Shown piece after piece: positions 1,224 to 27,694 of a DNA stretch of 37,257 nucleotides. The DNA is taken from IMG/VR virus record IMGVR_UViG_2917849834_000002; one strand, written 5' to 3'. The notes below the pieces were generated by a model. That model was given only the letters and a program-made list of their open reading frames with translations. It did not search any database and was not told the DNA's origin. How positions within the stretch are numbered: the first letter of the stretch is position 1; each line of letters opens with the position of its first letter. Position numbers and translations under genes: made by a program. This DNA comes from a virus. Its lineage: Duplodnaviria > Heunggongvirae > Uroviricota > Caudoviricetes.

Positions 1224-2015
1224 TTATGGTTCGATCGCCGTTTTGAGCCGTTGTGTTGCTACATCAAAATAATGATCACTGGTTTCTATACCAATAAATT
1301 TGCGTCCTGCTTTCAGTGCAGCCACACCCGTTGTCCCTGACCCCATAAAAGGATCAAGGACTGTTCCGCCACTATTCACAGTCCTGACCAGTTCCGCCAT
1401 TAGTTCTTCTGGTTTTCCGGTCGGGTGCATTTTCTTTGACGGGATAACCGGGTACGTCATGCAGCCGTCGAACGGTCCCGAAGGTGATTTATCTAAATGG
1501 CCTTTGCTGCCCCAGACGATGTATTCGCACTGGTGCCGGAAATACCCGGTATGTGGTGTTCGTGACCCCCTCCCTTTGTTCCACGCAATGATGCCGCGCC
1601 ATGTAAAGCCACTGGCCTGAAACGCATCGGTTAAAGCTGGTAGTTGTCGCCAGTCAGTAAATACCAGGGCATAACCGCCCGGCCTGACTGCGCGGTGTGC
1701 CTGTGCCATCCATAATTGTGTCCAGTAAGCCCACGAACGGGCGTCCATGTTTTCACCCGCGAACCCATCAAAGCGGTGAAGGTTCTCGCCGTTCAGATAT
1801 TTTGCATGGCTGCCCTGGTTGGTGCGTCCGGCCTTGTGTGTCGCACCCGAACTGTAAGGCGGGTCAGTAATTAAGGCATCAATGCTTTCTGGCTCAATCA
1901 GCGGCAATATTTCCAGCGCATTTCCACGACAGAGCGTGGCATTGTCAGTCTGGTAAATCTTAGTGTGTTCCGGTGTATGTACTGGCTGGTGCTGGATTGC
2001 GATCCCCACGGTCAT
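1224..2015 (-). CDS. DNA methyltransferase (N6-adenine or N4-cytosine, beta class)
   Basis: 263 aa; DPPY catalytic motif (ITDPPYSSG) N-terminal to the AdoMet motif DPFMGSGTTGVAA; 5' end overlapped by the com-like ORF. Confidence 0.85.
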   Translation of the reverse strand: MTVGIAIQHQPVHTPEHTKIYQTDNATLCRGNALEILPLIEPESIDALITDPPYSSGATHKAGRTNQGSHAKYLNGENLHRFDGFAGENMDARSWAYWTQLWMAQAHRAVRPGGYALVFTDWRQLPALTDAFQASGFTWRGIIAWNKGRGSRTPHTGYFRHQCEYIVWGSKGHLDKSPSGPFDGCMTYPVIPSKKMHPTGKPEELMAELVRTVNSGGTVLDPFMGSGTTGVAALKAGRKFIGIETSDHYFDVATQRLKTAIEP

Positions 2016-2157
2016 AACTCCTCATGCGTGTGGGGTGCTCAATGGCTCTCGTTATCTGGTTAAGTGTTTTGCAGCGCGGACATTTTATTTCAATGTAGAG
2101 AAATGAGGCGCGGGCAAGTAGTTTGTTGCAATTTTTGCATCGTACATTTTGCGTCAT
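1960..2157 (-). CDS. com: Com-like zinc-finger translational regulator
   Basis: MTQNVRCKNCNKLL...IEIKCPRCK matches the Mu Com pattern (CxxC...CxxC); ATG at 2157 with SD GAGGTG 6 nt upstream; overlaps the methylase start as com overlaps mom in Mu. Confidence 0.75.
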   Translation of the reverse strand: MTQNVRCKNCNKLLARASFLYIEIKCPRCKTLNQITRAIEHPTRMRSYDRGDRNPAPASTYTGTH

Positions 2158-2407: not shown

Positions 2408-2548
2408 TTACTGCTTACACTGTAAGATCGCCGCAAACTCCGCTCCCCAGAAGCTCATCCGTATTTCACACAGCGAACCGTGTAGCATCCAGATGATGAG
2501 GATTGCCGTCACGCAGAACGTGATGGCTATAAGCGATTTTTGCGACAT
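2408..2548 (-). CDS. hok: Hok/Gef-family type I toxin (46 aa)
   Basis: Not in the ORF track (under 60 aa). Translation MSQKSLIAITFCVTAILIIWMLHGSLCEIRMSFWGAEFAAILQCKQ: one TM helix plus the conserved SLCEIR motif; SD AAGGAG 8 nt upstream. Confidence 0.7.
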   Translation of the reverse strand: MSQKSLIAITFCVTAILIIWMLHGSLCEIRMSFWGAEFAAILQCKQ

Positions 2549-3378: not shown

Positions 3379-5076
3379 TCAGGCGATAAGGTCGCCGTAT
3401 TTTTCACGCAGACTCGTGGCCTGTTGGGCATCTGCGGCAAGTTCGCCGCTGTTCATCGGTGCGCCAGTGTTGCTGTGGGTGTGGTTTGCTGTATGTGTGG
3501 CCAGCAATTGAATCAGGTCCAGAATATCAGTCAGCAACGTCAGCAGGTTAAGCCCGGACTTTTCCCGCGAGCCGCTGCGACCAATAAACACTGTCGGGGC
3601 GGTAAACTCCAGACCGCCGTCCGCCCTGCATGTTCTGCGGCCTCCCACGTTTTCAGTCAGGTCGTGCTCAATCGTTGACGTTGCGCCTTTAAGTTTAGTC
3701 AGCAAATCCTGCGCCACCATCTGGATGTGTTCGCCGGCTGCGATCGCGTAATTGCCGGTAGTAAGGTGTTCTGTCTGGCCTGTCATCAGCTTGCTGGTAC
3801 CAAGAACACTGGTTATGTCGTTTGCCTGGACTGTTGTTGTTCTGGTTGTTGTTGTGCGTTCTTCCTGGTCGCTGTTAATGGTTCGCCTGGCAGAATGCTC
3901 CCTGATTTGCTGGTCGGTTTCCCTGTGCCAGCTTCCGTCAGTCGTGACACGCTGAAACACTTCTGCGCGCTGTTGCTGCAACTGTTCGCCGGGCTTTACA
4001 TCAGGCAGGTTATGTCCGGCAGGTAAGATTTGCCTGATGACAGGTTTATCCGGGCGGCCTTCAATACTGGATATTTCCACGATGGTGCCTGCCGGTGGGT
4101 AGGCAAAACATCCCGCCTCGCTACCAGCCATCGGGACAGGGAGCGGTACTGCCGGGTAAACAGGCGTATCGCTTTTGTCGTTGCCGTTCTCATCAAGCAG
4201 CTGCACGTCCACGGCGTAGCGTGGGCGGAAACTGTCGGCTACATCGCCCAGGGTGGCGGATTCCGTTGGTGCGACGACCCGCGCCAGTCTGGTGTGTAGT
4301 GTACCGCTGGCCAGTTCCGGAAACTGCGTTTCCATCTGTCTGCGCAATGGTGATTTGGAAACAGGGCTACCCGTGGCGGTGAGGCGCTCCCATGTCAGTG
4401 TCATTTTCTCGTTGTTGAGGGCTACACGGGTAATACGCCCGGCCGGAAGATTCACACCCGGCCGCACGGTTTCCATGAACATGATGTCGATGCTGTTTCC
4501 GCCGCTTTGCCCGAGTGTGTACTGTTGCGGAATATCGGGCATGGTAATGCTGGCAAACCGTGAATCAGCTGCGTTTCCCACAAATACAGAACCGTCCGGC
4601 ATGGGGTGCCAGACGTAATCGCTGATACTGAATGAGCGCCCCAGCTGGCTGAGTAACTGCGTCCCGCTGCCGCTGTGGGTGATGTAGGGAGTTGGTGTGC
4701 TGACATAATCCGCATCTGGCGTGATAAAAACGATACCGCTTTGTCGCCCCAGATTATCGAGCACATCCCGCAACGTCGGGTGTTGCATGGAGCAGGGGAA
4801 ATCAAAATCCAGCACAGCAGCTGCTTCACGGATAAAAAGGCGACGTGAGCCATTTTCGGCCGGTTGATCGCGTTCTATGTAGCCAGAGAAATAGCGCCAG
4901 GCCTCACCATTACGGCCGAGATCGATTTGCACCATTGCGCCGGCAAGGCTTTTTTCTGGTGACAGATTGTTAACAGAAACGAAGCCGCGACCGGCAGCAT
5001 TCAGGGTGAGAGCAAGGCTGATATCGGCAATTTCCACCTGTTCGCCATTGATCATGCAGCGTTGTATCAATTTCAT
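3379..5076 (-). CDS. Putative tail/baseplate hub protein (possibly gpD-like) with long C-terminal extension
   Basis: 565 aa, last gene of the late operon, ATGA-coupled to the upstream gene; N-terminal LALTLNAAGRGF and HPTLRDVLDNLG resemble gpD/Mu gp44 motifs from memory. Family assignment is weak. Confidence 0.35.
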   Translation of the reverse strand: MKLIQRCMINGEQVEIADISLALTLNAAGRGFVSVNNLSPEKSLAGAMVQIDLGRNGEAWRYFSGYIERDQPAENGSRRLFIREAAAVLDFDFPCSMQHPTLRDVLDNLGRQSGIVFITPDADYVSTPTPYITHSGSGTQLLSQLGRSFSISDYVWHPMPDGSVFVGNAADSRFASITMPDIPQQYTLGQSGGNSIDIMFMETVRPGVNLPAGRITRVALNNEKMTLTWERLTATGSPVSKSPLRRQMETQFPELASGTLHTRLARVVAPTESATLGDVADSFRPRYAVDVQLLDENGNDKSDTPVYPAVPLPVPMAGSEAGCFAYPPAGTIVEISSIEGRPDKPVIRQILPAGHNLPDVKPGEQLQQQRAEVFQRVTTDGSWHRETDQQIREHSARRTINSDQEERTTTTRTTTVQANDITSVLGTSKLMTGQTEHLTTGNYAIAAGEHIQMVAQDLLTKLKGATSTIEHDLTENVGGRRTCRADGGLEFTAPTVFIGRSGSREKSGLNLLTLLTDILDLIQLLATHTANHTHSNTGAPMNSGELAADAQQATSLREKYGDLIA

Positions 5077-5648
5077 GTTTTCCCTTCCTCTTTCGCGCTT
5101 CCGATGCCAACAGCATCCAGACCAGAGCCAACGGCATCATTGATTTTTTTCCAGAATGAACTTTGCGTATTCATGCCTTTGTCTGGCACCTGTTCGCTGC
5201 CGTTCTGTGTTTGCTGTTTTGCAATTGTTTTCTGTGAGCCGCTACGTGCAGATGCTTTCTCTGGTACGCTTAATTTTTCTCTGAGGGTAAAGGTGACCTG
5301 CCAGTGCATCTTGCCCTGTTGTTCCGTGGCATCGATGCCGCCGGAAAAAACACCCTGTCGCATATTAATCGCCTTAGCGGTAGCGTTGGCGATGCGGTAT
5401 GTTTTTTTGGCCCCGTTACCTTCAGTTGCTTCGGCAAGCTGAAAAATACGGGTCAGAATGGCCTCATCGTTAAAATCAATGACACCTGACACGCGCAGTT
5501 CTTTTGCCTTGTTTCCCTGCTGAGCGCTTGTGGTGCTGGTTGACTGCCCGGACATGTCTTTATCCGGTAGTTGCATGGTGGCACTGACGGTGATGTTGCG
5601 CAGCAGAATGGCCTCTCCGTCAAGCGCAAGAACAATTATCTGGGTCAT
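5073..5648 (-). CDS. Hypothetical late-operon protein, probably tail-associated
   Basis: 191 aa; SD AAGGGAAG upstream; stop overlaps the next start (ATGA). No recognisable motif. Confidence 0.3.
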   Translation of the reverse strand: MTQIIVLALDGEAILLRNITVSATMQLPDKDMSGQSTSTTSAQQGNKAKELRVSGVIDFNDEAILTRIFQLAEATEGNGAKKTYRIANATAKAINMRQGVFSGGIDATEQQGKMHWQVTFTLREKLSVPEKASARSGSQKTIAKQQTQNGSEQVPDKGMNTQSSFWKKINDAVGSGLDAVGIGSAKEEGKT

Positions 5649-6333
5649 GTAGTGCTTCCCTTAGTGATGAGAGTTCATCGCCGACAAACAGCATCACGGC
5701 GGTAAAAACCCACTCCGGGTGTGGAATGTTTTTTTGTATCAGTGCCGCAGTCTGATTAAGTGTTCCCTTGTTGCAAAAACGCCACACCGGACAGAATTGT
5801 TGTCTGAGTGCTGTCTCTCGCCCGGCAATTTCCTGCAAAATTTTATCTCTCGCTTCCCTGAACTGATGAAGTGACGATGACAATGTTTCCGGTGATGTGG
5901 CTGCTGGGGTGGCTGCCTGCGCAATGGTTGCCGCCAGTGTCATGCCACGGGTTGTCTGTGTTGACAGCGTTATCGGCTCCGGAAGTGATGTTGCCGGCCT
6001 GGCGGGGAGTTGCATTCTGCTGATGGCCAGCGAAAGCTGGCTGGAGATCATGCGGGACATTCGCCCCACCTCCGGCAACGGAAATGCACCTGAAAATTGC
6101 CTGGCGAGTGATAAAAATTCGTCAGCGGACGGGGCGCAGAGTAACAGCGCCACAACGTCCTTTTCTGTGCTTTCTGTCAGGTACGGTAAAAGTGCGGATA
6201 CCGCATTGTCCGGACTGAGATAACGCCCGGATGGTGTAATGTTTCCCGTATTTTCTGACCACGGATGAAGGCAGACCACTGAACAGCTGATGTTCATGGC
6301 TGCCGGGCGCAGAATGGCCTTTTCCCATTTCAT
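5620..6333 (-). CDS. Hypothetical late-operon protein, probably tail-associated
   Basis: 237 aa; start overlaps the stop of the upstream fibre chaperone (ATGA). No recognisable motif. Confidence 0.3.
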   Translation of the reverse strand: MKWEKAILRPAAMNISCSVVCLHPWSENTGNITPSGRYLSPDNAVSALLPYLTESTEKDVVALLLCAPSADEFLSLARQFSGAFPLPEVGRMSRMISSQLSLAISRMQLPARPATSLPEPITLSTQTTRGMTLAATIAQAATPAATSPETLSSSLHQFREARDKILQEIAGRETALRQQFCPVWRFCNKGTLNQTAALIQKNIPHPEWVFTAVMLFVGDELSSLREALHDPDNCSCA

Positions 6334-6902
6334 TCTGCCTTGCCCACCTGAAATGCGCGAATTTCTGCGAGATTATTCAGTTTAGTCAGTGTGTTTTTCA
6401 TCTCCCGCTGGCGCAGATAAATCTCATTGTTGCGGGTAACCTGTGCCTGAACCATTGCCGTCAGCAGTTCGTCCAGTTGCTGCACGGAGAGTTTCACCTG
6501 GCGGTTGTTCGCGTCGTTCCATGTCATAACGCTTCGTGCCGTGTCAGATTTTGCCAGCATCACCACCGGAGACAATCTGTCCACTGAAACAGGGCCGGCA
6601 TCCCAGATTCGCTTTTTCCATTCGAATGTGAACGACCGCGCTTCCTGTTCTGTGCGCCATGCTTCAATTTCCCGACGCTTGGCTGTTTTTGCTGCTTCCA
6701 GTATTTCCGGTGTCACAGTGAACGGAGCTATCTCCCCCCATTTACCGCTTTGCAGTTCCTGCCAGATTTTCTGGCCTGTTGGCGCCGTATCATCTGCCGT
6801 CGCTGTATACGGCAGTGCTTCGCCCATTCCCTCGAGCAGTACGTCACAGTCAATTGCACCACTTTCGATATAACGGGCGTTTTCGATTTTTTTTATTTTC
6901 AT
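6330..6902 (-). CDS. Tail fibre assembly chaperone (set 2)
   Basis: 190 aa immediately downstream of fibre 2; size and position typical of Tfa/gpG/Mu U chaperones. Confidence 0.55.
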   Translation of the reverse strand: MKIKKIENARYIESGAIDCDVLLEGMGEALPYTATADDTAPTGQKIWQELQSGKWGEIAPFTVTPEILEAAKTAKRREIEAWRTEQEARSFTFEWKKRIWDAGPVSVDRLSPVVMLAKSDTARSVMTWNDANNRQVKLSVQQLDELLTAMVQAQVTRNNEIYLRQREMKNTLTKLNNLAEIRAFQVGKAE

Positions 6903-6909
6903 AAATCAC

Positions 6910-8958
6910 CTATGCTGTACGTATAAACAAACCAATCATGACACCGAACGTATCAGCCGATCCCATCATGTCGCCAGACAATGCCCGGTACGTTCCCGGC
7001 AAACCTGCTCCTGAATCACGAAAATAAGCAGATACGTTGCCGTCGTATACGCCGGCCACGTTACTGGTGAAATGGCCCTTAAATTCAACCGCGCTAAGAC
7101 GCGAGCCAGGGTAATAATAACCCCGCATTATCCGGCGATTCTGGTCTGAAGAGTCACTTCCTCTGTATGCGGCCAGCACCAGACTGCCTGTGCCGTACCA
7201 GGCGTCTGTGGCTCCCGGAGCAATGCCTGACAGAAGATCGATAACGTTCTGAGTGGTAAATTTCAGTGATTCCCAGCCGATGAGATAGCCATTTCCACTT
7301 GTCCAGTAGCGGTTGTGATAAATATTGCCGTTAATGCCATAGAAAGTAATGACCTTTACTGTATGACGCGGGTTCGGCACTCCATACTCTGACTCAACCC
7401 AGCGAATACGAACCATTCCTTTGAACAGCACGTCCGGTATAATTTTATTGCTGCCGTCAACAAGATATTCTCCCGGTTCTGCCTTCCTTACCCACGCAAG
7501 AAAATCATTTTCTGAGTTAAACCTGATGACCTCGTCAGGGAGAAAGATATGACCAAAGCCGAACGCGCCAGGTATAGCCAGGCGGTCTGCCGTGCGGTCA
7601 TGAATGTCACCCTGCGGCTCCAGTGTGGCAGCTTTTCCAAGCTCAAGGATCGTGTGCATGTCTGCCAGTGTTTCCTGCATCAGCAGAGTGCGCGCCATTT
7701 CTGACAGTGTGGAAAGCGAAGCATTCCCTTCCGTATCAAAGCACAATAATTTGTCTGCCCGCGCTTTCAAATTGCTGATGGCGGTTAACACGTCACTGAG
7801 AGGTTGCTTGCCTGCCAGCGCGTTGGTGACTGTTGTTGCAAAGTTCGGGTCATTGCCCAGCGCCGCCGCCAGTTCGTTCAGCGTGTCCAGGGCTTCGGGA
7901 GATGAATCCACCAGTGCAGCGAGCAGTTTGCGGACAAACGCCGCATTTGCGATTTCTGTCCCCGTGGCATCATCAGGCGGTGTCGGGGTTTTCGGAGCGC
8001 CGGTAAAGACCGGACTGTACAGGGTGGCTCTGGCGTTGATTAACGTTAAGAAGTACGCCTCATTTGTCTTCAGGTTATCCCAGCCAGTCAGATAACCACC
8101 GCTGAGAGGCCAGTAACGGTTGTAATAAACATCTCCGTTAACGGTGTATAAAATAATGGCTTTTGCCATATGTTGCGGTTCTGGTGGATTGCGGTTCGCC
8201 TCCAGAAACCGGATATTAATTACACCACAGTAGCCACCGGGTAACACACCATTGGCCCCCTGTACAGAATACTCTCCGGGCGTTGCCTGCTTGACCCATG
8301 CTAGGAGGTCTTTTTCTGTATCAAACCGGATAAGCTCGCCTGGCAGAAACATGTGACCAAAACCAAATGCGCCCGGTATCGCCAGCCGGCCTTCCGTGCG
8401 GTCGTAAATATCACTCTGCGGCTCCATTGTGGCGGCATTTTTCAGTCCCAGATTATCACGGGATTCCTGTTGCGCCTCTTCACCTTCTGCCGCAATTTCT
8501 GACAGGTGGTTAGCCGTTTTCAGCATTGTTTTCAGTTCCGGATAAATATCCATCTGCCAGCTCTGTGGGGGAACCGTGATTTGTGCAGCCTGAGCCATAC
8601 CACTGTAAGTGATTGCAAAATTACGAAGAAGAGTTTCCCCCACATGTTTGTGGTGAACAGGAGTTTTTATTACACCGCATAGCGTGCCACTTGCCTGGTG
8701 AACAAGACAAATCCAGTCATAACTGAATTCGGCGTCTTCAGTGACTGCACCGCTACATACAATGCTGTTTGGGGTCAGTTGTCCGTAGGTGAGTTTGTTT
8801 ACGGTATAAGTAATTTTTTCCGGTGGAATAATATTATCTTCCGGGCTGGGGTCGCGATTCATTAGTGCAAATACGATGGCATCCGGCCGGGCAGGTAAAT
8901 TGCCGGCAATGCATTTTGCAATCCATTTTTCAAATGCTTTCGTTAATAATGCGCTCAT
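6910..8958 (-). CDS. Tail fibre protein 2 (mosaic, with internal duplication)
   Basis: 682 aa; N-terminus homologous to fibre 1; contains the P2 gpH-type motif ALDTLNELAAALGNDPNFATT; two diverged copies of a roughly 125-aa segment (aa ~177-300 and ~445-570). Confidence 0.8.
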   Translation of the reverse strand: MSALLTKAFEKWIAKCIAGNLPARPDAIVFALMNRDPSPEDNIIPPEKITYTVNKLTYGQLTPNSIVCSGAVTEDAEFSYDWICLVHQASGTLCGVIKTPVHHKHVGETLLRNFAITYSGMAQAAQITVPPQSWQMDIYPELKTMLKTANHLSEIAAEGEEAQQESRDNLGLKNAATMEPQSDIYDRTEGRLAIPGAFGFGHMFLPGELIRFDTEKDLLAWVKQATPGEYSVQGANGVLPGGYCGVINIRFLEANRNPPEPQHMAKAIILYTVNGDVYYNRYWPLSGGYLTGWDNLKTNEAYFLTLINARATLYSPVFTGAPKTPTPPDDATGTEIANAAFVRKLLAALVDSSPEALDTLNELAAALGNDPNFATTVTNALAGKQPLSDVLTAISNLKARADKLLCFDTEGNASLSTLSEMARTLLMQETLADMHTILELGKAATLEPQGDIHDRTADRLAIPGAFGFGHIFLPDEVIRFNSENDFLAWVRKAEPGEYLVDGSNKIIPDVLFKGMVRIRWVESEYGVPNPRHTVKVITFYGINGNIYHNRYWTSGNGYLIGWESLKFTTQNVIDLLSGIAPGATDAWYGTGSLVLAAYRGSDSSDQNRRIMRGYYYPGSRLSAVEFKGHFTSNVAGVYDGNVSAYFRDSGAGLPGTYRALSGDMMGSADTFGVMIGLFIRTA

Positions 8959-9515
8959 TATTCTTTATTCTCATTAATAGTTTGCGACAGCTCCGGCCAC
9001 GCGATCGCGGCATACGCTGTTTTATCCGTAATCAGGCTAAAATCCATCACCTGCAATTCCTTTGCGTAAATACGATATGCTCTCAGCTTTTCTTTATCTT
9101 CGTCGCTGATTAACCCCAGCAACAGGTCTTTTTCCCAGTCAGCAGTTAACCGGCTTACATCCTTGAGCTTCCTCACTCGCTCATCTTCTGCCTTTTTACC
9201 GTAATCAAATATGAATTTACCATCCCGGTAAAACCAGTAACCCGATATATCAATTCGTCGGTTAGCTGTGTTATCTGTCACTTCAATCACGCTCCTGTTT
9301 CTGGGGTTAATTGACGCAACATCTTTGCCAACCCAGGTAACTTTTCCTGTATCCAGATATTCGACTTTTAATGTGTCAGGTGAAAAATCTTTCTGAATCT
9401 CATACCAGTTTTCACCAGATTCTGCATACAACCACTCGACGCCATATCTTTTAGTTAACTCATATTGTTCGGCTGTTTTCGGATTGCCCGACGTAATATT
9501 TTTTAAGTGCAACAT
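8958..9515 (-). CDS. Tail fibre assembly chaperone (set 1)
   Basis: 185 aa directly after fibre 1 (TAATG overlap with the next start); Tfa-like size and composition. Confidence 0.65.
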   Translation of the reverse strand: MLHLKNITSGNPKTAEQYELTKRYGVEWLYAESGENWYEIQKDFSPDTLKVEYLDTGKVTWVGKDVASINPRNRSVIEVTDNTANRRIDISGYWFYRDGKFIFDYGKKAEDERVRKLKDVSRLTADWEKDLLLGLISDEDKEKLRAYRIYAKELQVMDFSLITDKTAYAAIAWPELSQTINENKE

Positions 9516-9517
9516 AA

Positions 9518-11176
9518 TTACATACTCGCTACGTTATACCAGGTTCCATTAATCAGTTTCTGAAGGGGGCGGATAAACCACCCGTCGGCAGAGTTATCCC
9601 AGTCTCCGTAGCAGTAGCCACCCACACTGACATAACCCGGGGGAGCCAGGTTTGAGCCTGTACTGCCCATCTGTTGATAACCGCCAAGACGCATATCCTG
9701 TACTCCCATTTTATTTTGCAGGTAAGATGACAGCCATCCTCCCCATGTGCTGCCGTACACGTTACCGTCAGCCGCAAGCCTTGCAGAGCCGTTGCCTGAC
9801 TGTAATTCACCTGTTGCGACACTATTTCCATGCACCAGTGAACCGCCACCGGTGGTCACTTTGTGTGACATGGCAATATCACCAGTCCGCAGGTTAATTG
9901 AGAAAGGACGCAGAGGGCCAATATTGCCATTTTCACCCTGTCCTTCCGTGGTGGGGATAAGATGAAGGCTGTCTTCTGAGCGACGAAAAATCAGACCAAA
10001 GGCGCCATCGAAAATCCTCAGCGCATTAACGTCACGAATTTTCAGTTCCCCGGTCATGGTATCGCCACCTCGCTGAACGGCGCCTTCTGCCTTATCAACG
10101 GTGGGCTTTAGTCCGACGTTTTCAATAAACAGTGGTTTGTCGGGGATGTCGCTGCCGTTGCGATTTTTCGCAAGGCGGGCATTTGCGTTATCCATTGCGA
10201 TTTTTACCGCTTTTGACGTGGCGGCACGGTCTTCTGCATCACTGTCAGTGGCGTTACTGTACTGAGCGAATCCTTTTTCGTTCAGTGTGGCATCCGGGTG
10301 CCTGCGGGATTTTTCGTGTTCTGCCAGTGCATTGCTTTGTTCTTCGTCGGGTGTCTCCGGACGTAAATCCTGTGAGCCGTCTGCTGTCAGTTTTGCAAGC
10401 GGTGCAACAAAATGCCGAAAGCCATTCCCGTCTGTGTAGGATGCATGTTCCGGGCGGGCGCTGAATGTGAAAACCGTATTCCATTCGCCAGTAACAAATC
10501 CCTGCCAGCTTGCATCAATCCAGATGGTGTCCCCGACCGTTGCGCGCAGGCTGTAAGGTTCGCGCAGACTGACGCGCAAACCTCCCACATAACCAATCCC
10601 CGCGGCAACAATGGCGGTGCCGTTCTGATAGCTCACCTGAAAACCGTCCTCCAGAAAAGCGGCTTCACCGTAGTGATCAAACGCCAGCAGTCTGCGGGCT
10701 TCATCCATTCCCGCCAGGCGGGCAGTGAAATCAATCTGCCAGACATCAGCACTGACATCGATATGCATCGCTGCTGCCGCACCGTCAAACTCCATGGAAA
10801 ACGTGCGGATCAGATTGTTTCCCTGTACACCGTTCGCGGTTTTAATTTTTTGCTGGCAGGGGGTGTGCGCAATCATACAGAGCACGCCGCTTTCTTCGTT
10901 CAGCAGGCCAATCCAGTTGTATTCGAAGTCGCCGATTGTGGTATCCAGAATGATGGAAAATGCGGTTGCATTCGGTGACAGGAGACCGTACTGGGTGACC
11001 GGTGCGCGATACTGGATCAGGGTTTCATCAGGGAGCGTTTCGTCGCGGGGGATCTCTGCAGACTCATCCAGTCCCGGAATATATGCAAAAACAAATGTAT
11101 CCGGGCGCGCAGGTTTCCCGCTGATGATCTGATTTGCGCACCAGTGTTCGTATTGTTCAGTAATAATCGTACTCAT
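9518..11176 (-). CDS. Tail fibre protein 1 (P2 gpH-like C-terminal two-thirds)
   Basis: 552 aa; AEHEKSRRHPDATLNEKGF and C-terminal KLINGTWYNV match P2 gpH motifs as I recall them; start overlaps the gpI-like stop. Confidence 0.85.
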   Translation of the reverse strand: MSTIITEQYEHWCANQIISGKPARPDTFVFAYIPGLDESAEIPRDETLPDETLIQYRAPVTQYGLLSPNATAFSIILDTTIGDFEYNWIGLLNEESGVLCMIAHTPCQQKIKTANGVQGNNLIRTFSMEFDGAAAAMHIDVSADVWQIDFTARLAGMDEARRLLAFDHYGEAAFLEDGFQVSYQNGTAIVAAGIGYVGGLRVSLREPYSLRATVGDTIWIDASWQGFVTGEWNTVFTFSARPEHASYTDGNGFRHFVAPLAKLTADGSQDLRPETPDEEQSNALAEHEKSRRHPDATLNEKGFAQYSNATDSDAEDRAATSKAVKIAMDNANARLAKNRNGSDIPDKPLFIENVGLKPTVDKAEGAVQRGGDTMTGELKIRDVNALRIFDGAFGLIFRRSEDSLHLIPTTEGQGENGNIGPLRPFSINLRTGDIAMSHKVTTGGGSLVHGNSVATGELQSGNGSARLAADGNVYGSTWGGWLSSYLQNKMGVQDMRLGGYQQMGSTGSNLAPPGYVSVGGYCYGDWDNSADGWFIRPLQKLINGTWYNVASM

Positions 11177-11808
11177 GCGTTATTTGCCTGTAATGTGTAA
11201 TGCTCCACGGACAGGCCGTAATGTCCTGCCTGTAGTGAAGCGGTTAACCAGATGGTGTCCTTTCTCACCGTTGCTTCTGCTGTGTGGTACCGGTAGTGAC
11301 CATCAAACGTGCCGGCTGTCAGTCGGGCGGTGGTTGCATTGATCACCTGAAAGAAATAGCGCCTGCAGGTACGGCCATACTGGCGCACGAGCTGCATCAT
11401 CAGCGCGTTGCTTTCACTCAGCTGGGTGTCATTAATGCGCAGTAAAATAACGTCCCAGTCATGTTGCAGTTGTCGCTCCAGTGTTTTAACGTCTCCCACG
11501 CCAAGACGTTTAAAGATGCGCTCGAAGCCGGCGCGTTCGCCTGAGTCCTGAGCGTTGATAAATGCGTGTTTTACCCTCAGGCGAAATAACGAAACCGGCT
11601 CCCCCTTAAATCGGGTGATGTTGCGCTGGTATGCCAGCAGGTTAAGTAAAGGCTCTGCGCAGGTGTCGACATCAATCTGCTGTAGTGGCCACGTCAGCCA
11701 GCTCCAGACCTTTTCCCAGTAGCGATGCGATGAATGTGCAAGCGTCAACGGCTCACCTTTATTCATCCAGGTGGGAAGTGGAAATTCGGGTATCTCCGGA
11801 AGTTTCAC
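11173..11808 (-). CDS. Baseplate/tail protein, gpI-like
   Basis: Follows the baseplate J gene; likely GTG start at 11808 overlapping the J stop (GTGA) with SD GGAGGTG 5 nt upstream (alternative ATG at 11766). Confidence 0.55.
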   Translation of the reverse strand: MKLPEIPEFPLPTWMNKGEPLTLAHSSHRYWEKVWSWLTWPLQQIDVDTCAEPLLNLLAYQRNITRFKGEPVSLFRLRVKHAFINAQDSGERAGFERIFKRLGVGDVKTLERQLQHDWDVILLRINDTQLSESNALMMQLVRQYGRTCRRYFFQVINATTARLTAGTFDGHYRYHTAEATVRKDTIWLTASLQAGHYGLSVEHYTLQANNA

Positions 11809-12989
11809 GCGCCCACCTCCACAGCAAGCGATTCCAGACGGGGAACGGCCAGATCGCTGAGAATATCCGGAAGGGAAAACGTAACCGACTCCACCTGTGG
11901 AAAGACCTGGTGGATCTCTTCGCCCAGTCTGGACATGCTGAAACGGCTGTACGGCCATGTTTTCTGAACGTCATAATCGCTGTTTTCGCGAAATGCACAG
12001 CGAACCAGATTTTCCACATTGTGCAATAGTGTCTGAATCTCCTCATCGCTGAGGTTCAGCGTTGCATACAACCAGAGTGTCACGGTCAGGGTGTGGCGTG
12101 TTTCAGGCATGGAAAAACAGCGCAGATCGTCACCGTGTCCGTGATGACCTTCATCGTTAATGAATGCGTTTACTGCATCAACGAACGGTTCGGATGCGAT
12201 GCCGGTATCCAGCAGAATGTAAGCATTCGCTGTGCCGGGGCCGCGTGGTGCATCATGCAGAAAATAGATGCGGTCGGCACTGATGCCGGCAACACCGGCA
12301 ATTAATCCACGGTAAACAGCATCGGTGTGATAAGCGCCGGCAAGATTAAACTGATTGCGCACACGATCACGCAGCTCGTCGTCGCTTTCTTCGTTGGCCC
12401 CCGGCGAGGTCAGCCAGTTTTCATCGTTCTCAACGCCGGCAATGCCGTCAATTGCCACCGGAAGGATGCGGTAATACCCCGGTGCGAGGTTAAAGCCGGC
12501 CCCGGCCTGTTCCGCAGAAACATCGATGTTCATGCTGAGTGTTCCTGCCGGAATAACCGTATCCCTGACAACGGTCAGCGTATAAATCACGCCGTTAATA
12601 CGCTCTGTCTGGATCTGTGTACCTGCCGGCACAGTAACTGTGCGATCAATATCGTCTTTTGTGAAACGAATAACGCCGGATGCGTGCGTGGCGGCCTTGC
12701 GCTGCAGGTTCACTGCCCAGGCAAAAACATCAACGAATACACCACTGGCATCGGCCAGAAACAGGTTTTTCATCACCACATTAACCAGCGCGTCTTTCAG
12801 CCACATCACGGGTTTTGTGGTGATAGCTGTAATCAGTCGCCAGAACGGCGACATGCGGGATGTGTTGGTGATAAGCCCTTCGTCTTTGACAATGGCTTCA
12901 AATTCAGCACGTGCCTGTTCTTCGGTTACCGGCATGCCATTATCAGCCAGAATGCGCTCGTAATCTGCGGTAGGTTTGCCGTTAATCAT
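11805..12989 (-). CDS. Baseplate J-like protein
   Basis: 394 aa from ATG at 12989; size and position (after the gp25/W-position gene, before gpI-like and fibres) typical of baseplate J / Mu gp47. Confidence 0.75.
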   Translation of the reverse strand: MINGKPTADYERILADNGMPVTEEQARAEFEAIVKDEGLITNTSRMSPFWRLITAITTKPVMWLKDALVNVVMKNLFLADASGVFVDVFAWAVNLQRKAATHASGVIRFTKDDIDRTVTVPAGTQIQTERINGVIYTLTVVRDTVIPAGTLSMNIDVSAEQAGAGFNLAPGYYRILPVAIDGIAGVENDENWLTSPGANEESDDELRDRVRNQFNLAGAYHTDAVYRGLIAGVAGISADRIYFLHDAPRGPGTANAYILLDTGIASEPFVDAVNAFINDEGHHGHGDDLRCFSMPETRHTLTVTLWLYATLNLSDEEIQTLLHNVENLVRCAFRENSDYDVQKTWPYSRFSMSRLGEEIHQVFPQVESVTFSLPDILSDLAVPRLESLAVEVGA

Positions 12990-13332
12990 CAAGAGATACC
13001 GTAAAAGTCAGGGGTTCAAAAAAATCTTCGGTGTGGGCGCTAATCAGCAGGCGACCAGAAAGCGGGGTTTCTTCTGTCACACTGACCGTGCCAGGTGTAA
13101 TACGCTCATCATCTTCAATCAGCAGTGTCATCTGCATCATGATGTCGGCACGAAGCGTCGGGCTTTTTTCAGCCAGCAGGCGCGTTGCCAGTCCGCTCTC
13201 AATGATGGCGTGCTGGCAGTCCTGGGCAATACTTTCCCTGTTGTTGCACAATACCGGCTCACTGGCGCTGTTCAGCGTGAGATTGCGACCGGTGATGAGC
13301 AAATCAATGTAAAGCGGTTTATCAGTATGCAT
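12982..13332 (-). CDS. Small baseplate protein in the gp25/gpW position
   Basis: 117 aa from ATG at 13332 (SD GGAG), overlapping the tape-measure stop by 8 nt; assignment is by position only. Confidence 0.35.
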   Translation of the reverse strand: MHTDKPLYIDLLITGRNLTLNSASEPVLCNNRESIAQDCQHAIIESGLATRLLAEKSPTLRADIMMQMTLLIEDDERITPGTVSVTEETPLSGRLLISAHTEDFFEPLTFTVSLDD

Positions 13333-26734: not shown

Positions 26735-27694
26735 TTACTCCTTGTCCATTGCGTACAGCCCATTAACCAGAGCAAACTGTGGCACCCCGTCCGCGATGAA
26801 AGTCGCATTAACTCCGCAGGCTTCGCGGATAGCGGGTGCCACAATCTCCGCCCCGCCACCGACAACCATCACCCGCCCGTAACCCGAAAAAACCGCCAGC
26901 GCGCGGATCACGCGTTGTTTCAGTGTTTCTTCCTTTTCACGAATAACCGCCATCAGGCTGGCGTAATGCGCGTCATTGTGGATGTGCTGGCGCAGCCAGG
27001 CTTCATCATGGCGATGTTCGATAATGGTATTGGCGATGTGGTGACTGGTGCGCATACCGTTAGTGGCCATCACCGACAGTACGGCATCGGCCATCAGAGA
27101 AACGCCTACGTGTGGATCGCAAAACACCTGGCTGATACCTGCCAGTTGCCCCTGAACCTTTGCCACATCCAGCGTGGTTCCGCCCAAATCCACAATCAGC
27201 AGGGATTCAAACGGACTCATGTCAGCCAGTGCCTTAAAGCCAGCCGGAATGGATTCAGGCATAACCCGTACGTTACGGATAGTGAATGCTTCGCCGTTCT
27301 GGTACTCCACCGGGCGCATGACATTCGCTTTTTTGCGGTTGATGTTGGCCATGTCCGGCTGTGCGTTTGTATCGAAATACTCGCTCAGTGGCAGGGTGAC
27401 AACCACATCCACTTCCTGTGGTGTGATGCCTGATTTGACCAGCGCGTGATGAATGGCAATTACATTCACATCGCTGTACTGGTATTGCGTGTCGGTCGTC
27501 TGGACAAAGCGATCGCTGACCGGATCAAAACCATAGCGCACGCCATCAAGCATGTAGTTCGCGGGCTGCGTGCCACCGAACGGCGCAGACCATTCCGACT
27601 TGAAGCTGTTCGGGCTGATGGCGTTGCGGCGTTCGCCGTTCTCAGTCCATGCCAGCTTGATGTTGGTGGAGCCGTCGTCGATACAAATTTTCAT
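26735..27694 (-). CDS. parM: ParM/StbA-family actin-like segregation ATPase
   Basis: 319 aa; MKICIDDGSTNIKL, LIVDLGGTTLD and VMVVGGGAE align with R1 ParM motifs from memory; SD AAGGAAAAG upstream. Confidence 0.88.
   Translation of the reverse strand: MKICIDDGSTNIKLAWTENGERRNAISPNSFKSEWSAPFGGTQPANYMLDGVRYGFDPVSDRFVQTTDTQYQYSDVNVIAIHHALVKSGITPQEVDVVVTLPLSEYFDTNAQPDMANINRKKANVMRPVEYQNGEAFTIRNVRVMPESIPAGFKALADMSPFESLLIVDLGGTTLDVAKVQGQLAGISQVFCDPHVGVSLMADAVLSVMATNGMRTSHHIANTIIEHRHDEAWLRQHIHNDAHYASLMAVIREKEETLKQRVIRALAVFSGYGRVMVVGGGAEIVAPAIREACGVNATFIADGVPQFALVNGLYAMDKE

Follow-up and report, generated by a model that had tools for sequence, protein, structure and literature searches.

The tails of P2- and HP1-type phages are the simplest contractile injection machines, and engineered pyocins and tailocins are built on them. 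Descriptions usually give these tails a single type of fibre and attribute shifts in specificity to exchange of the fibre tip or to DNA inversion. The temperate P2/HP1-type prophage considered here, approximately 33 kb in size, carries two tail fibre genes in tandem, each followed by a different gene of chaperone type, and raises the question of what a second fibre is doing on such a tail. A first-pass annotation had suggested either a virion with two fibre types or a captured extra cassette. Here, we analyse the tail module within the window, that is, the whole stretch of 37,257 nucleotides of IMG/VR record IMGVR_UViG_2917849834_000002. The reading we favour, with a probability of roughly 0.65, is that one late operon holds two permanent slots for receptor-binding fibres, which would be expressed together as a dual receptor-binding system, each slot exchanging its distal modules independently of the other.

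The module belongs to an HP1-like Peduoviridae prophage and consists of the baseplate genes gpJ and gpI, the two fibre and chaperone sets, and homologues of orf33, orf34 and orf35. Its features are as follows.

11805..12992, minus strand: gpJ-like baseplate wedge protein, 395 aa (PF04865 Baseplate_J, E 1.6e-31); upstream edge of the fibre module
11173..11808, minus strand: gpI-like baseplate/tail protein, 211 aa (PF09684 Tail_P2_I; phrog_1228)
9518..11176, minus strand: fibre 1, 552 aa (PF12571, 100.3 bits; PF03406, E 5e-15; PDB 5yvq, E 5.7e-42)
8958..9515, minus strand: chaperone 1, 185 aa, tail fibre assembly protein of the P2 G / Mu U / lambda Tfa type (PF02413 Caudo_TAP, E 5.5e-20; phrog_136, E 4.9e-51)
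6910..8958, minus strand: fibre 2, 682 aa, a chimera (PF12571, 29.8 bits; Stf-type distal homology)
8524..8958, minus strand: anchor domain of fibre 2 (F2N), residues 1–145; diverged paralogue of the fibre 1 anchor, judged by sequence
8044..8460, minus strand: fibre 2 knob copy 1, residues ~167–305 (51% identity to copy 2; AF2 model)
7609..8043, minus strand: fibre 2 shaft segment, residues 306–450, with the widespread P2 gpH / Stf LDTLNELAAALGNDPNFATT collar motif (P2 gpH identity; PDB 9d93)
7189..7605, minus strand: fibre 2 knob copy 2, residues ~452–590 (repeat of copy 1; AF2 model)
6913..7188, minus strand: fibre 2 C-terminal beta-rich tip, residues 591–682 (AF2 pLDDT ~75–85; Stf homologues aligned as far as residue 682)
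6330..6902, minus strand: predicted chaperone 2, 190 aa, DUF4376 type (PF14301, E 1.4e-13, residues 70–174; phrog_1141, E 2e-80)
5620..6333, minus strand: HP1 orf33-like structural protein, 237 aa, directly downstream of chaperone 2 (phrog_1677 / phrog_31292; syntenic with HP1 orf33)
5073..5648, minus strand: HP1 ORF34 baseplate complex protein, 191 aa (PF25759, E 9.7e-54)
3379..5076, minus strand: HP1 orf35-like baseplate hub/spike protein, 565 aa (phrog_2258, E 1.8e-232); downstream edge of the tail module

The description of two full, co-oriented sets holds: all four fibre and chaperone ORFs lie on the minus strand, with coordinates as first annotated. The gpI start was chosen from the gene call in locus L002 and from translation. 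Apart from the additional fibre and chaperone, the genes follow the HP1-like order Baseplate_J, Tail_P2_I, fibre, chaperone, orf33, HP1_ORF34 and orf35. Among close relatives gpJ is 96–98% identical, and the orf35-like protein is 42–47% identical to orf35 of HP1, HP2, ESSI-2, SI7 and vB_YenM_324. NCBIfam offers no names for the module proteins, the sole exception being a weak VgrG-like match for orf35.

The two fibres are alike at their N-termini. Residues 1–157 of fibre 1 align with residues 1–145 of fibre 2 at 36% identity (BLASTP, E 2e-23), and both proteins exceed the Pfam gathering cut-off for PF12571 (23 bits). The anchors share an FExW...PARPD motif, with ..GKPARPD and ..NLPARPD found in the two N-termini. 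Past this region BLASTP detects no significant similarity between the fibres, and the chaperones are unrelated (E 23), chaperone 1 belonging to PF02413 Caudo_TAP and chaperone 2 to PF14301 DUF4376. Both the shared N-termini and the unlike distal regions and chaperones had been noticed at first reading, and the alignments confirm them. GC content is 41.6% in chaperone 1, 45% in F2N and 52% in the prophage; as a mark of foreign origin, the F2N–F1N difference is small and inconsistent across 13 relatives.

Set 1 has the arrangement of P2 H/G and Mu S/U, namely an S-like fibre bearing PF03406 with a PF02413 chaperone directly after it. Residues 1–160 of fibre 1 form the canonical HP1-type PF12571 anchor, residues 161–340 a conserved shaft, and residues ~294–552 a Mu S-like distal module, with the PF03406 repeat at residues 297–338 and the distal half matching Mu tail fibre protein S (PDB 5yvq). 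The anchor is 90–100% identical within the lineage (dN/dS 0.04), and shares 47–51% identity with the single fibre that SI7 and vB_YenM_324 each possess. Chaperone 1 retains just 38–69% identity in relatives and so is exchanged together with the fibre 1 tip; from its sequence, we take the distal module of fibre 1 to be its cognate partner.

Fibre 2 has a different composition. Residues ~170–682 are 45–71% identical to Stf proteins, which carry PF08400 (‘prophage tail fiber N-terminal domain’), with 66–80% of fibre 2 covered; identity to the Rac-SA53 tail fibre is 46%. PF08400 itself is absent from fibre 2 in a Pfam scan, and the N-terminus is PF12571 instead, which makes the protein a chimera and not a member of the Stf family. 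With an HP1-type anchor in place of PF08400, an Stf-type module would be mounted on a contractile P2-type tail, and the borrowed lambdoid portion is confined to the distal part of fibre 2 and chaperone 2. The shaft segment matches tail collar fibre gp4 (PDB 9d93, E 5.5e-11) and residues 308–494 are 46% identical to P2 gpH, so that the gpH-type motifs ascribed to both fibres are present, as PF03406 in fibre 1 and as this segment in fibre 2. An internal domain duplication overlooked in the first-pass annotation gives fibre 2 two copies of a ~140-aa knob (51% identical, E 1e-53), visible in the DNA as a direct repeat (8251–8440 / 7447–7636, 75% identical). Structure prediction of the distal region, which had been proposed as a check, was informative in part: the knobs are predicted to be alpha/beta globular domains (AF2, pLDDT 80–90), while a Foldseek search of the PDB with the distal model, itself of moderate quality (pLDDT 69), returned nothing below E 0.08.

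Both fibre ORFs are uninterrupted. Gene calls on four independent assemblies give the identical 682-aa fibre 2 protein, and nearly all relatives, like the window, have an intact fibre 2 ORF. In a near-identical relative, one additional G at about window position 6990 truncates the C-terminal tip domain. The copy in E. coli A2 is labelled ‘pseudogenes’ by PGAP, yet is an intact ORF of 681 aa. The small PF14301 protein encoded from 7 nt past the fibre 2 stop falls within the DUF4376 family. For Alteromonas phages V22 and A5, DUF4376 proteins are reported as tail fibre chaperones (PMC10579305; PMC7289586). By analogy, chaperone 2 is predicted to be a chaperone and the cognate of the Stf-type distal module.

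The anchor of fibre 2 bears on the history of the second slot. A first protein search with a 173-aa anchor query gave 26 proteins, mostly partial, and the clade was delimited by an exhaustive profile-free search; across 1.84 billion representatives, F2N forms a discrete clade. It is monophyletic, and its internal branch is the longest in the family tree (0.173 versus a median of 0.021). F2N carries two clade-specific deletions of 5 and 6 aa, is 30–37% identical to the co-resident fibre 1 anchor in the lineage, evolves under purifying selection (dN/dS of about 0.12), and is seen solely in second position. Its fold matches phage baseplate and fibre-adaptor domains. On this sequence evidence F2N is most probably an old paralogue of the anchor in slot 1, from which it has diverged strongly.

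The distribution of double and single sets among relatives, another check proposed at the outset, follows the relatedness of gpI. At gpI identity of at least 75%, every sampled relative that reaches far enough has fibre 1, Caudo_TAP and then an F2N-type fibre; a single fibre is found in Edwardsiella and in every locus of lower gpI identity with a detected PF12571 fibre. The survey comprises about 25 dual-fibre loci, which are phylogenetically non-independent, and a scan of species-representative genomes with gpI gave just 3 loci. Dual-fibre hosts include E. coli, E. albertii, Y. kristensenii and Plesiomonas, among others, and Salmonella contains fragments of fibre-2 type. HP1, SI7 and vB_YenM_324 have one fibre each, and so do the isolated phages of INPHARED, where all 57 matching records match at a single place with identity to F2N no higher than 32.5%. 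Among 5426 complete E. coli genomes, 49 contain F2N, compared with 43 that have full gpI and the fibre-1 anchor. As a diverged anchor of its own is conserved across this enterobacterial prophage lineage, the second set is best understood as a fixed second host-recognition slot and not as a recent capture. That half of the first-pass alternative finds no support as a recent event: the second slot is present in every sampled close relative (Escherichia, Yersinia, Plesiomonas), and its anchor appears old and is under purifying selection. The other half, a virion with two fibre types, is favoured, as an inference from the genes.

Beyond the anchors, the tips of the two slots have evidently been exchanged independently: loci L040 and L045 have the same fibre 1 and different fibres 2, and loci L049 and L051 have the same 842-aa fibre 2 and different fibres 1. 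Slot 2, with at least 11 distal architectures, shows no less variation than slot 1. In some members the slot-2 gene is divided in two (285+352 aa, 200+340 aa) or has a frameshift close to the tip, which shows that the slot can decay or is differently built there.

The genes of the two sets are closely coupled. Fibre 1 and gpI share 4 nt (the gpI ORF begins at 11173, that of fibre 1 ends at 11176), chaperone 1 and fibre 2 overlap in TAATG, and chaperone 2 is preceded by an AGGTGA Shine–Dalgarno sequence; these junctions uphold the start sites, and neither fibre is disrupted when starts are refined. A scan for promoters and terminators between the sets gave site counts at or under the shuffled expectation. 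The inverted repeats seen are imperfect, 17–27 nt long and 70–94% complementary, and none flanks the cassette; long inverted repeats are absent around the fibre region. No Gin/Cin-type serine invertase is found among the module genes and ten further window ORFs scanned, and related loci have the same gene list without a recombinase. The region is thus not an invertible switch like the Mu G segment or P1 C segment, as had been argued from orientation at first reading: the genes occupy one strand, with no invertase among the genes scanned and no crossover repeats. Given overlapping or abutting genes with no terminator, promoter or inversion system between them, both fibres are expected to be made together.

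The favoured reading draws on gene structure, homology, lineage-wide conservation, purifying selection, the separate shuffling of the two tips and the lack of a switch. In slot 1, the PF12571 anchor and conserved shaft would be joined to an exchangeable tip of Mu S / P2 H type, folded by the Caudo_TAP chaperone. In slot 2, the junction between F2N and its exchangeable distal modules would fall near residue 145; the module in the window, comprising a lambdoid Stf-type shaft, two knobs and a beta tip, would be folded by the DUF4376 chaperone. We infer that both fibres assemble into one virion and bind different receptors, and that F2N docks at a site of its own without competing with fibre 1. 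Co-produced and mounted on the same tail, they would give each virion two receptor specificities, and the outcome might be a broader or hedged host range, or a two-step adsorption.

How the two anchors would share one baseplate is where the main alternative arises. Both fibres may instead compete through their homologous anchors for the same six baseplate sites, giving a stochastic mixture per virion or a mixed burst, in the manner of bet-hedging and not of a fixed 6+6 arrangement. The common PF12571 fold family and FExW...PARPD motif are consistent with this, as is the lack of any added adaptor or docking gene separating the dual-fibre from the single-fibre relatives compared, but the divergence of F2N, its two fixed deletions and its long internal branch exceed what is expected of one unchanged interface, and we consider such competition unlikely. 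The orf33-like protein also has a bearing here. It is the fastest-evolving conserved protein of the baseplate region (mean lineage identity 70%, versus 85–89% for gpJ, gpI, orf34 and orf35), and its divergence covaries with that of F2N (Mantel r 0.69, p 0.0004); F2N divergence does not track gpI or gpJ in this way, a pattern that argues against shared sites but for which linkage could account. A PDB sequence search with orf33, gpI and the PF12571 profile gave no meaningful matches and no HP1-type baseplate structure. Tentatively, and at somewhat below even odds, we propose that F2N evolved its own docking site on an otherwise standard HP1/P2-type baseplate, possibly via the orf33-like protein, so that the tail would bear two full sets of six fibres. 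A C-terminal extension of gpI was also considered as a docking element for fibre 2 particular to this lineage; a comparison of 12 sequences favoured the idea, which was then rejected, an equivalent tail being present in many single-fibre relatives (L092–L112).

Two further explanations concern what fibre 2 does. It could act like T4 gp12, as a short or secondary fibre, with fibre 1 making the first reversible contact and fibre 2 committing the particle and triggering contraction, in which case the fibres would not serve as alternative determinants of host range. In favour of this, the order of the slots and the two anchors stay the same throughout the lineage, and two-tier fibres are known in other myoviruses such as T4. 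Sf14 has two long tail fibres (PMC11821841). Against such a role, fibre 2 is no shorter than fibre 1 (682 versus 552 aa), shows no similarity to gp12-type fibres (Pfam, PHROGs, PDB sequence search and PDB fold search), and varies as expected of a primary specificity determinant, with slot 2 at least as variable as slot 1. Homology also links its distal module to the side tail fibres of lambdoid phages; those of lambda itself are accessory fibres of primary adsorption. We regard the short-fibre role as improbable. That the second set is a non-functional passenger recombined from a lambdoid prophage, unassembled in the tail or decaying, is hardly credible. The distal 75% of fibre 2 and chaperone 2 are indeed of lambdoid Stf type, and the split or frameshifted versions in some relatives and the PGAP call for E. 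coli A2 point the same way, but the anchor is HP1-type and not lambdoid PF08400, purifying selection acts across genera, and the ORF is intact almost throughout, the A2 ‘pseudogene’ included.

A fixed second paralogous anchor would be another route to multi-receptor recognition in a temperate phage of ~33 kb, with one slot swapping Mu/P2-type tips and the other lambdoid Stf-type tips. It raises the structural question of where a second fibre sits on a minimal baseplate, and fusion to the F2N anchor could be a way of giving P2-type particles a second specificity. Should F2N have a docking site of its own, slot 2 would be a plug-in socket through which a contractile-tailed temperate phage borrows the receptor-binding modules of lambdoid siphophages, and this naturally dual-specific P2-type tail would be a ready template for dual-target tailocins. 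The locus also exposes a systematic annotation error, in which intact fibre genes are labelled pseudogenes or ‘shikimate transporter’.

The closest known systems are HP1, ESSI-2, SI7 and vB_YenM_324, which share the gene order J, I, fibre, chaperone, orf33, orf34, orf35, with 56–60% identity to the window in gpJ, 47–52% in gpI, 47–52% in orf34 and 38–47% in orf35. The fibre 1 anchor is the orthologue of their single fibre (41–51% identity); these phages have one fibre and one chaperone, whereas in the window lineage a second fibre, its anchor from a distinct clade, lies between chaperone 1 and orf33. Mu S/U and P2 H/G resemble the distal half of fibre 1 (Mu S match, PF03406) and chaperone 1 (PF02413). 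In Mu, P1 and some P2 relatives, DNA inversion gives one slot two specificities by way of alternative C-terminal exons that face in opposite directions; in contrast, the window has two full tandem genes in the same orientation, both with an anchor of their own, and shows neither crossover sites nor, among the genes scanned, an invertase. Rac-type Stf shares the distal part of fibre 2 (residues ~170–682), including the repeated knob domain, and in one E. coli match among those listed (H43) a DUF4376 gene follows the Stf-type gene, as it does in the window; lambdoid Stf attaches through PF08400, however, and fibre 2 through an HP1-type PF12571 anchor. A full-text literature search found no description of a dual-fibre P2/HP1-like phage, and the ‘two tail fiber genes’ matches checked came from reference lists that cite a paper on a virulent O157:H7 phage. 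Several receptor-binding proteins per virion are familiar from other phages: T4 has long and short fibres, Sf14 has two long ones, and K1-5/SP6, CBA120 and phi92 have several tailspikes. The window would share with these the concept of more than one receptor-binding protein widening or staging host recognition. Such phages are larger and virulent and use dedicated adaptors or non-homologous attachment domains, whereas the window has a small temperate tail, paralogous anchors and no extra adaptor gene.

A complete HP1-like prophage (Peduoviridae) makes up the window, which over the 22,049 bp of the locus around fibre 2 (L002) is identical throughout to contig PDIA01000054.1 of GCA_004745155.1. 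All late tail genes lie on the minus strand, and the genes of the tail module overlap or abut one another in the order listed here, in which gpJ and gpI are P2-type baseplate genes and orf33, orf34 and orf35 are HP1 names of baseplate-region genes.

Genes of the tail module
11805-12992, minus strand: gpJ-like (PF04865)
11173-11808, minus strand: gpI-like (Tail_P2_I)
9518-11176, minus strand: fibre 1, 552 aa
8958-9515, minus strand: chaperone 1 (PF02413, Caudo_TAP)
6910-8958, minus strand: fibre 2, 682 aa
6330-6902, minus strand: chaperone 2 (PF14301, DUF4376)
5620-6333, minus strand: orf33-like
5073-5648, minus strand: HP1_ORF34 (PF25759)
3379-5076, minus strand: orf35-like hub/spike

The two pairs of fibre and chaperone are termed slot 1 and slot 2. 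Fibre 1 overlaps gpI by 4 nt, chaperone 1 and fibre 2 overlap in the sequence TAATG, and chaperone 2 starts 7 nt past the fibre 2 stop with an AGGTGA Shine-Dalgarno sequence ahead of it; a scan between the two sets showed no excess of promoter-like or terminator-like sites. Elsewhere, the prophage encodes accessory genes that are unusual in a P2-type genome: a full-length ParM/StbA-type actin-like segregation protein (26735-27694, minus strand; E 1.8e-82), a hok/gef-type toxin (2408-2548, minus strand) and, at the attachment-proximal end, a Com zinc-ribbon gene with an N6/N4 DNA methyltransferase gene behind it (1224-2157, minus strand).

The first-pass annotation had described homologous fibre N-termini and different chaperones, and pairwise comparison bears out both. 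Fibres 1 and 2 align at the N-terminus only, with 36% identity over 157 residues (E 2e-23), and both exceed the PF12571 cut-off; the two chaperones are unrelated. The distal half of fibre 1 contains a PF03406 repeat and is related to Mu tail fibre S (PDB 5yvq, E 5.7e-42). Fibre 2 has a P2 gpH-like collar segment and, past residue ~170, shares 45-71% identity with the distal parts of lambdoid side tail fibres (Stf), which are proteins with a PF08400 N-terminus; its identity to the Rac-SA53 tail fibre is 46%. A domain of ~140 aa is duplicated in tandem inside fibre 2 (residues ~167-305 and ~452-590, 51% identity, E 1e-53; 8044-8460 and 7189-7605, minus strand), and the underlying DNA repeat (7447-7636 and 8251-8440) is 75% identical. 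This domain is predicted by modelling to be a globular alpha/beta knob, for which a fold search of the PDB found no structural relative. The knob recurs two to three times in Stf-type homologues, and the repeat is therefore part of the borrowed module.

The nearest isolated phages, SI7 (Salmonella), vB_YenM_324 (Yersinia) and HP1 (Haemophilus), have a single fibre and a single chaperone between gpI and orf33. The PF12571 anchor of fibre 2 (F2N, residues 1-145; F1N is that of fibre 1) matched 57 of 50,697 isolated-phage records by tblastn, each at one place and at no more than 32.5% identity, and the two-fibre arrangement was not found in this collection. Prophage loci were retrieved via gpI (alone and as a profile) and via F2N, then annotated to count sets. 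Where gpI is at least 75% identical to that of the window, every locus that extends far enough contains fibre 1, Caudo_TAP and then an F2N-type fibre. Only one fibre occurs in Edwardsiella prophages (gpI 72-78%) and at every more distant locus with a detected PF12571 fibre. The most divergent F2N-type anchors (55-61% identity), from Yersinia kristensenii, one E. coli assembly and a Plesiomonas shigelloides MAG, also come second, within an unchanged gene order. Among 5,426 complete E. coli genomes, F2N is found in 49 and a complete gpI with the fibre-1 anchor in 43; the two-slot state therefore appears universal within a rare (~1%) prophage lineage. E. coli carriers of the prophage include strains A2, ETEC1730 and STEC711.

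Three single-fibre loci (L084, L085 and L086; gpI ~65% identical) encode a gpI-like protein extended in frame by some 240-400 residues, with the repeated motif WSEWGDMA.YGWP in L084. The extension is possibly an alternative route to a receptor-binding element on the same baseplate.

F2N forms a group of its own. Two deletions are common to all 13 F2N anchors examined, against every other PF12571 domain in the alignment. When 1.84 billion cluster representatives were searched exhaustively, 19 proteins matched at E<=1e-30 (55-75% identity), below which matches fall to 43% identity and E 1e-19. The F2N clade is monophyletic in a neighbour-joining tree of 118 domains, where it sits on the longest internal branch (0.173, compared with a median of 0.021). 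Its nearest outgroup comprises fibres of ordinary HP1-like prophages with one fibre each; these fibres share a PARPD motif with both F1N and F2N. The second anchor therefore originated in a fibre of this enterobacterial subgroup, after which it diverged rapidly. Both anchors are under purifying selection, with a pairwise dN/dS of about 0.12 for F2N and 0.04 for F1N.

Beyond the anchors, slots 1 and 2 are exchange hot spots that are shuffled independently. Fibre 1 is conserved among relatives to about residue 340 (84-96% identity), past which it varies jointly with chaperone 1 (38-69%). In fibre 2, conservation ends at about residue 145, and at least 11 distal architectures follow, accompanied by a DUF4376 chaperone or by none; slot-2 fibres measure 350, 518, 522, 530, 594, 619, 645, 679-683, 775 or 842 aa, with split forms of 285+352 and 200+340 aa. 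Loci L040 and L045 have the same fibre 1 and different fibres 2, while L049 and L051 have the same 842-aa fibre 2 and different fibres 1.

Several slot-2 variants are of interest in themselves. The 522-aa fibre of L078 (11127-12692; gpI 76% identical) has a shaft of collagen triple-helix repeats (PF01391, E 4e-10). The 350-aa fibre of L050 (13054-14106) matches the 842-aa fibre of L049 (13061-15589) at residues 1-142 (96%) and 683-842 (89%), and its middle (residues ~142-190) matches the 518-aa variant of L045 instead; from these matches it appears to be a recombinant, shortened relative of the 842-aa form, with anchor and tip retained. Slot 2 is occupied by two ORFs in E. albertii (L041, 6659-8599; L059, 12894-14834) and Y. 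kristensenii (L062, 8001-9721). In one such form, a 285-aa short anchor protein with 'PLTINR..' repeats precedes an unrelated 352-aa ORF, which has a TTG start and its own Shine-Dalgarno-like AAGGGG; the other pairs 200 aa with a 340-aa protein homologous to distal parts of fibre 2. Both forms may represent two-piece fibres or genes in decay. The IMG/VR record UViG_2917403263_000004 (L033/L067) differs from the window over 3.5-12.5 kb only by an additional G close to the 3′ end of fibre 2 (window ~6990; L033/L067 position 14819), which frameshifts the tip to give a 668-aa protein, as deposited for Escherichia sp. E3659; the G reflects a sequencing error or else a recent tip inactivation. Upstream (window 12.5-21.8 kb) the two are ~10% divergent, so recombination has transferred the fibre block between two distinct prophage backbones.

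The evidence favours a dual receptor-binding module in which both sets would be co-transcribed and translationally coupled, each of the two paralogous anchors would bear one exchangeable tip, and each tip would be folded by its own chaperone. We infer that both fibres are co-assembled in one virion and engage different receptors, and fibre 2 may dock at a separate site. The fold of F2N matches phage baseplate and fibre-adaptor domains (Bxb1 wing arm, Sf14 neck protein), which fits an anchoring role and indicates no specific partner; a sequence search found no solved HP1-type baseplate. The orf33-like protein evolves faster than any other conserved protein of the module, with a mean identity in the lineage of 70% versus 85-89% for its neighbours. 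In the close E. coli group, F2N divergence correlates with that of orf33 (Mantel r 0.69, p 0.0004), weakly with that of orf34 (r 0.26, p 0.049) and not significantly with gpJ, gpI or orf35. Co-adaptation at a docking site could produce this covariation, and linkage across the slot-2 cassette could give the same signal, so the correlation is only a suggestive lead on docking. The C-terminal tail of gpI was rejected as a docking adaptation because single-fibre relatives have the same tail.

Many lambdoid Stf-type tail fibre proteins (P0045, P0049, P0053 and others) bear the NCBI name 'shikimate transporter'. In E. coli A2 (NZ_CP028772.1; L001, 15906-17951), an intact 681-aa fibre 2 ORF has been split by annotation into two pseudogene fragments, one of which has this label. 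Such labels are an annotation artefact that conceals the second fibre.

The presence of several receptor-binding proteins in one phage is well known. The arrangement in the window differs from the Mu/P1 inversion switch, both defining features of which are absent: no inverted repeats flank a fibre cassette in the module and no invertase occurs among the genes scanned. Fibre 2 differs from Stf proteins in the N-terminus by which that family is recognized. The parts are all of known kinds, namely a PF12571 anchor, a Mu S/P2 H-type tip with Caudo_TAP and an Stf-type tip with DUF4376; DUF4376 proteins are given as fibre chaperones in passages on Alteromonas phages (PMC10579305; PMC7289586). No description of two tandem fibre genes with paralogous anchors in a P2/HP1-type temperate phage was found in the full-text literature searched.
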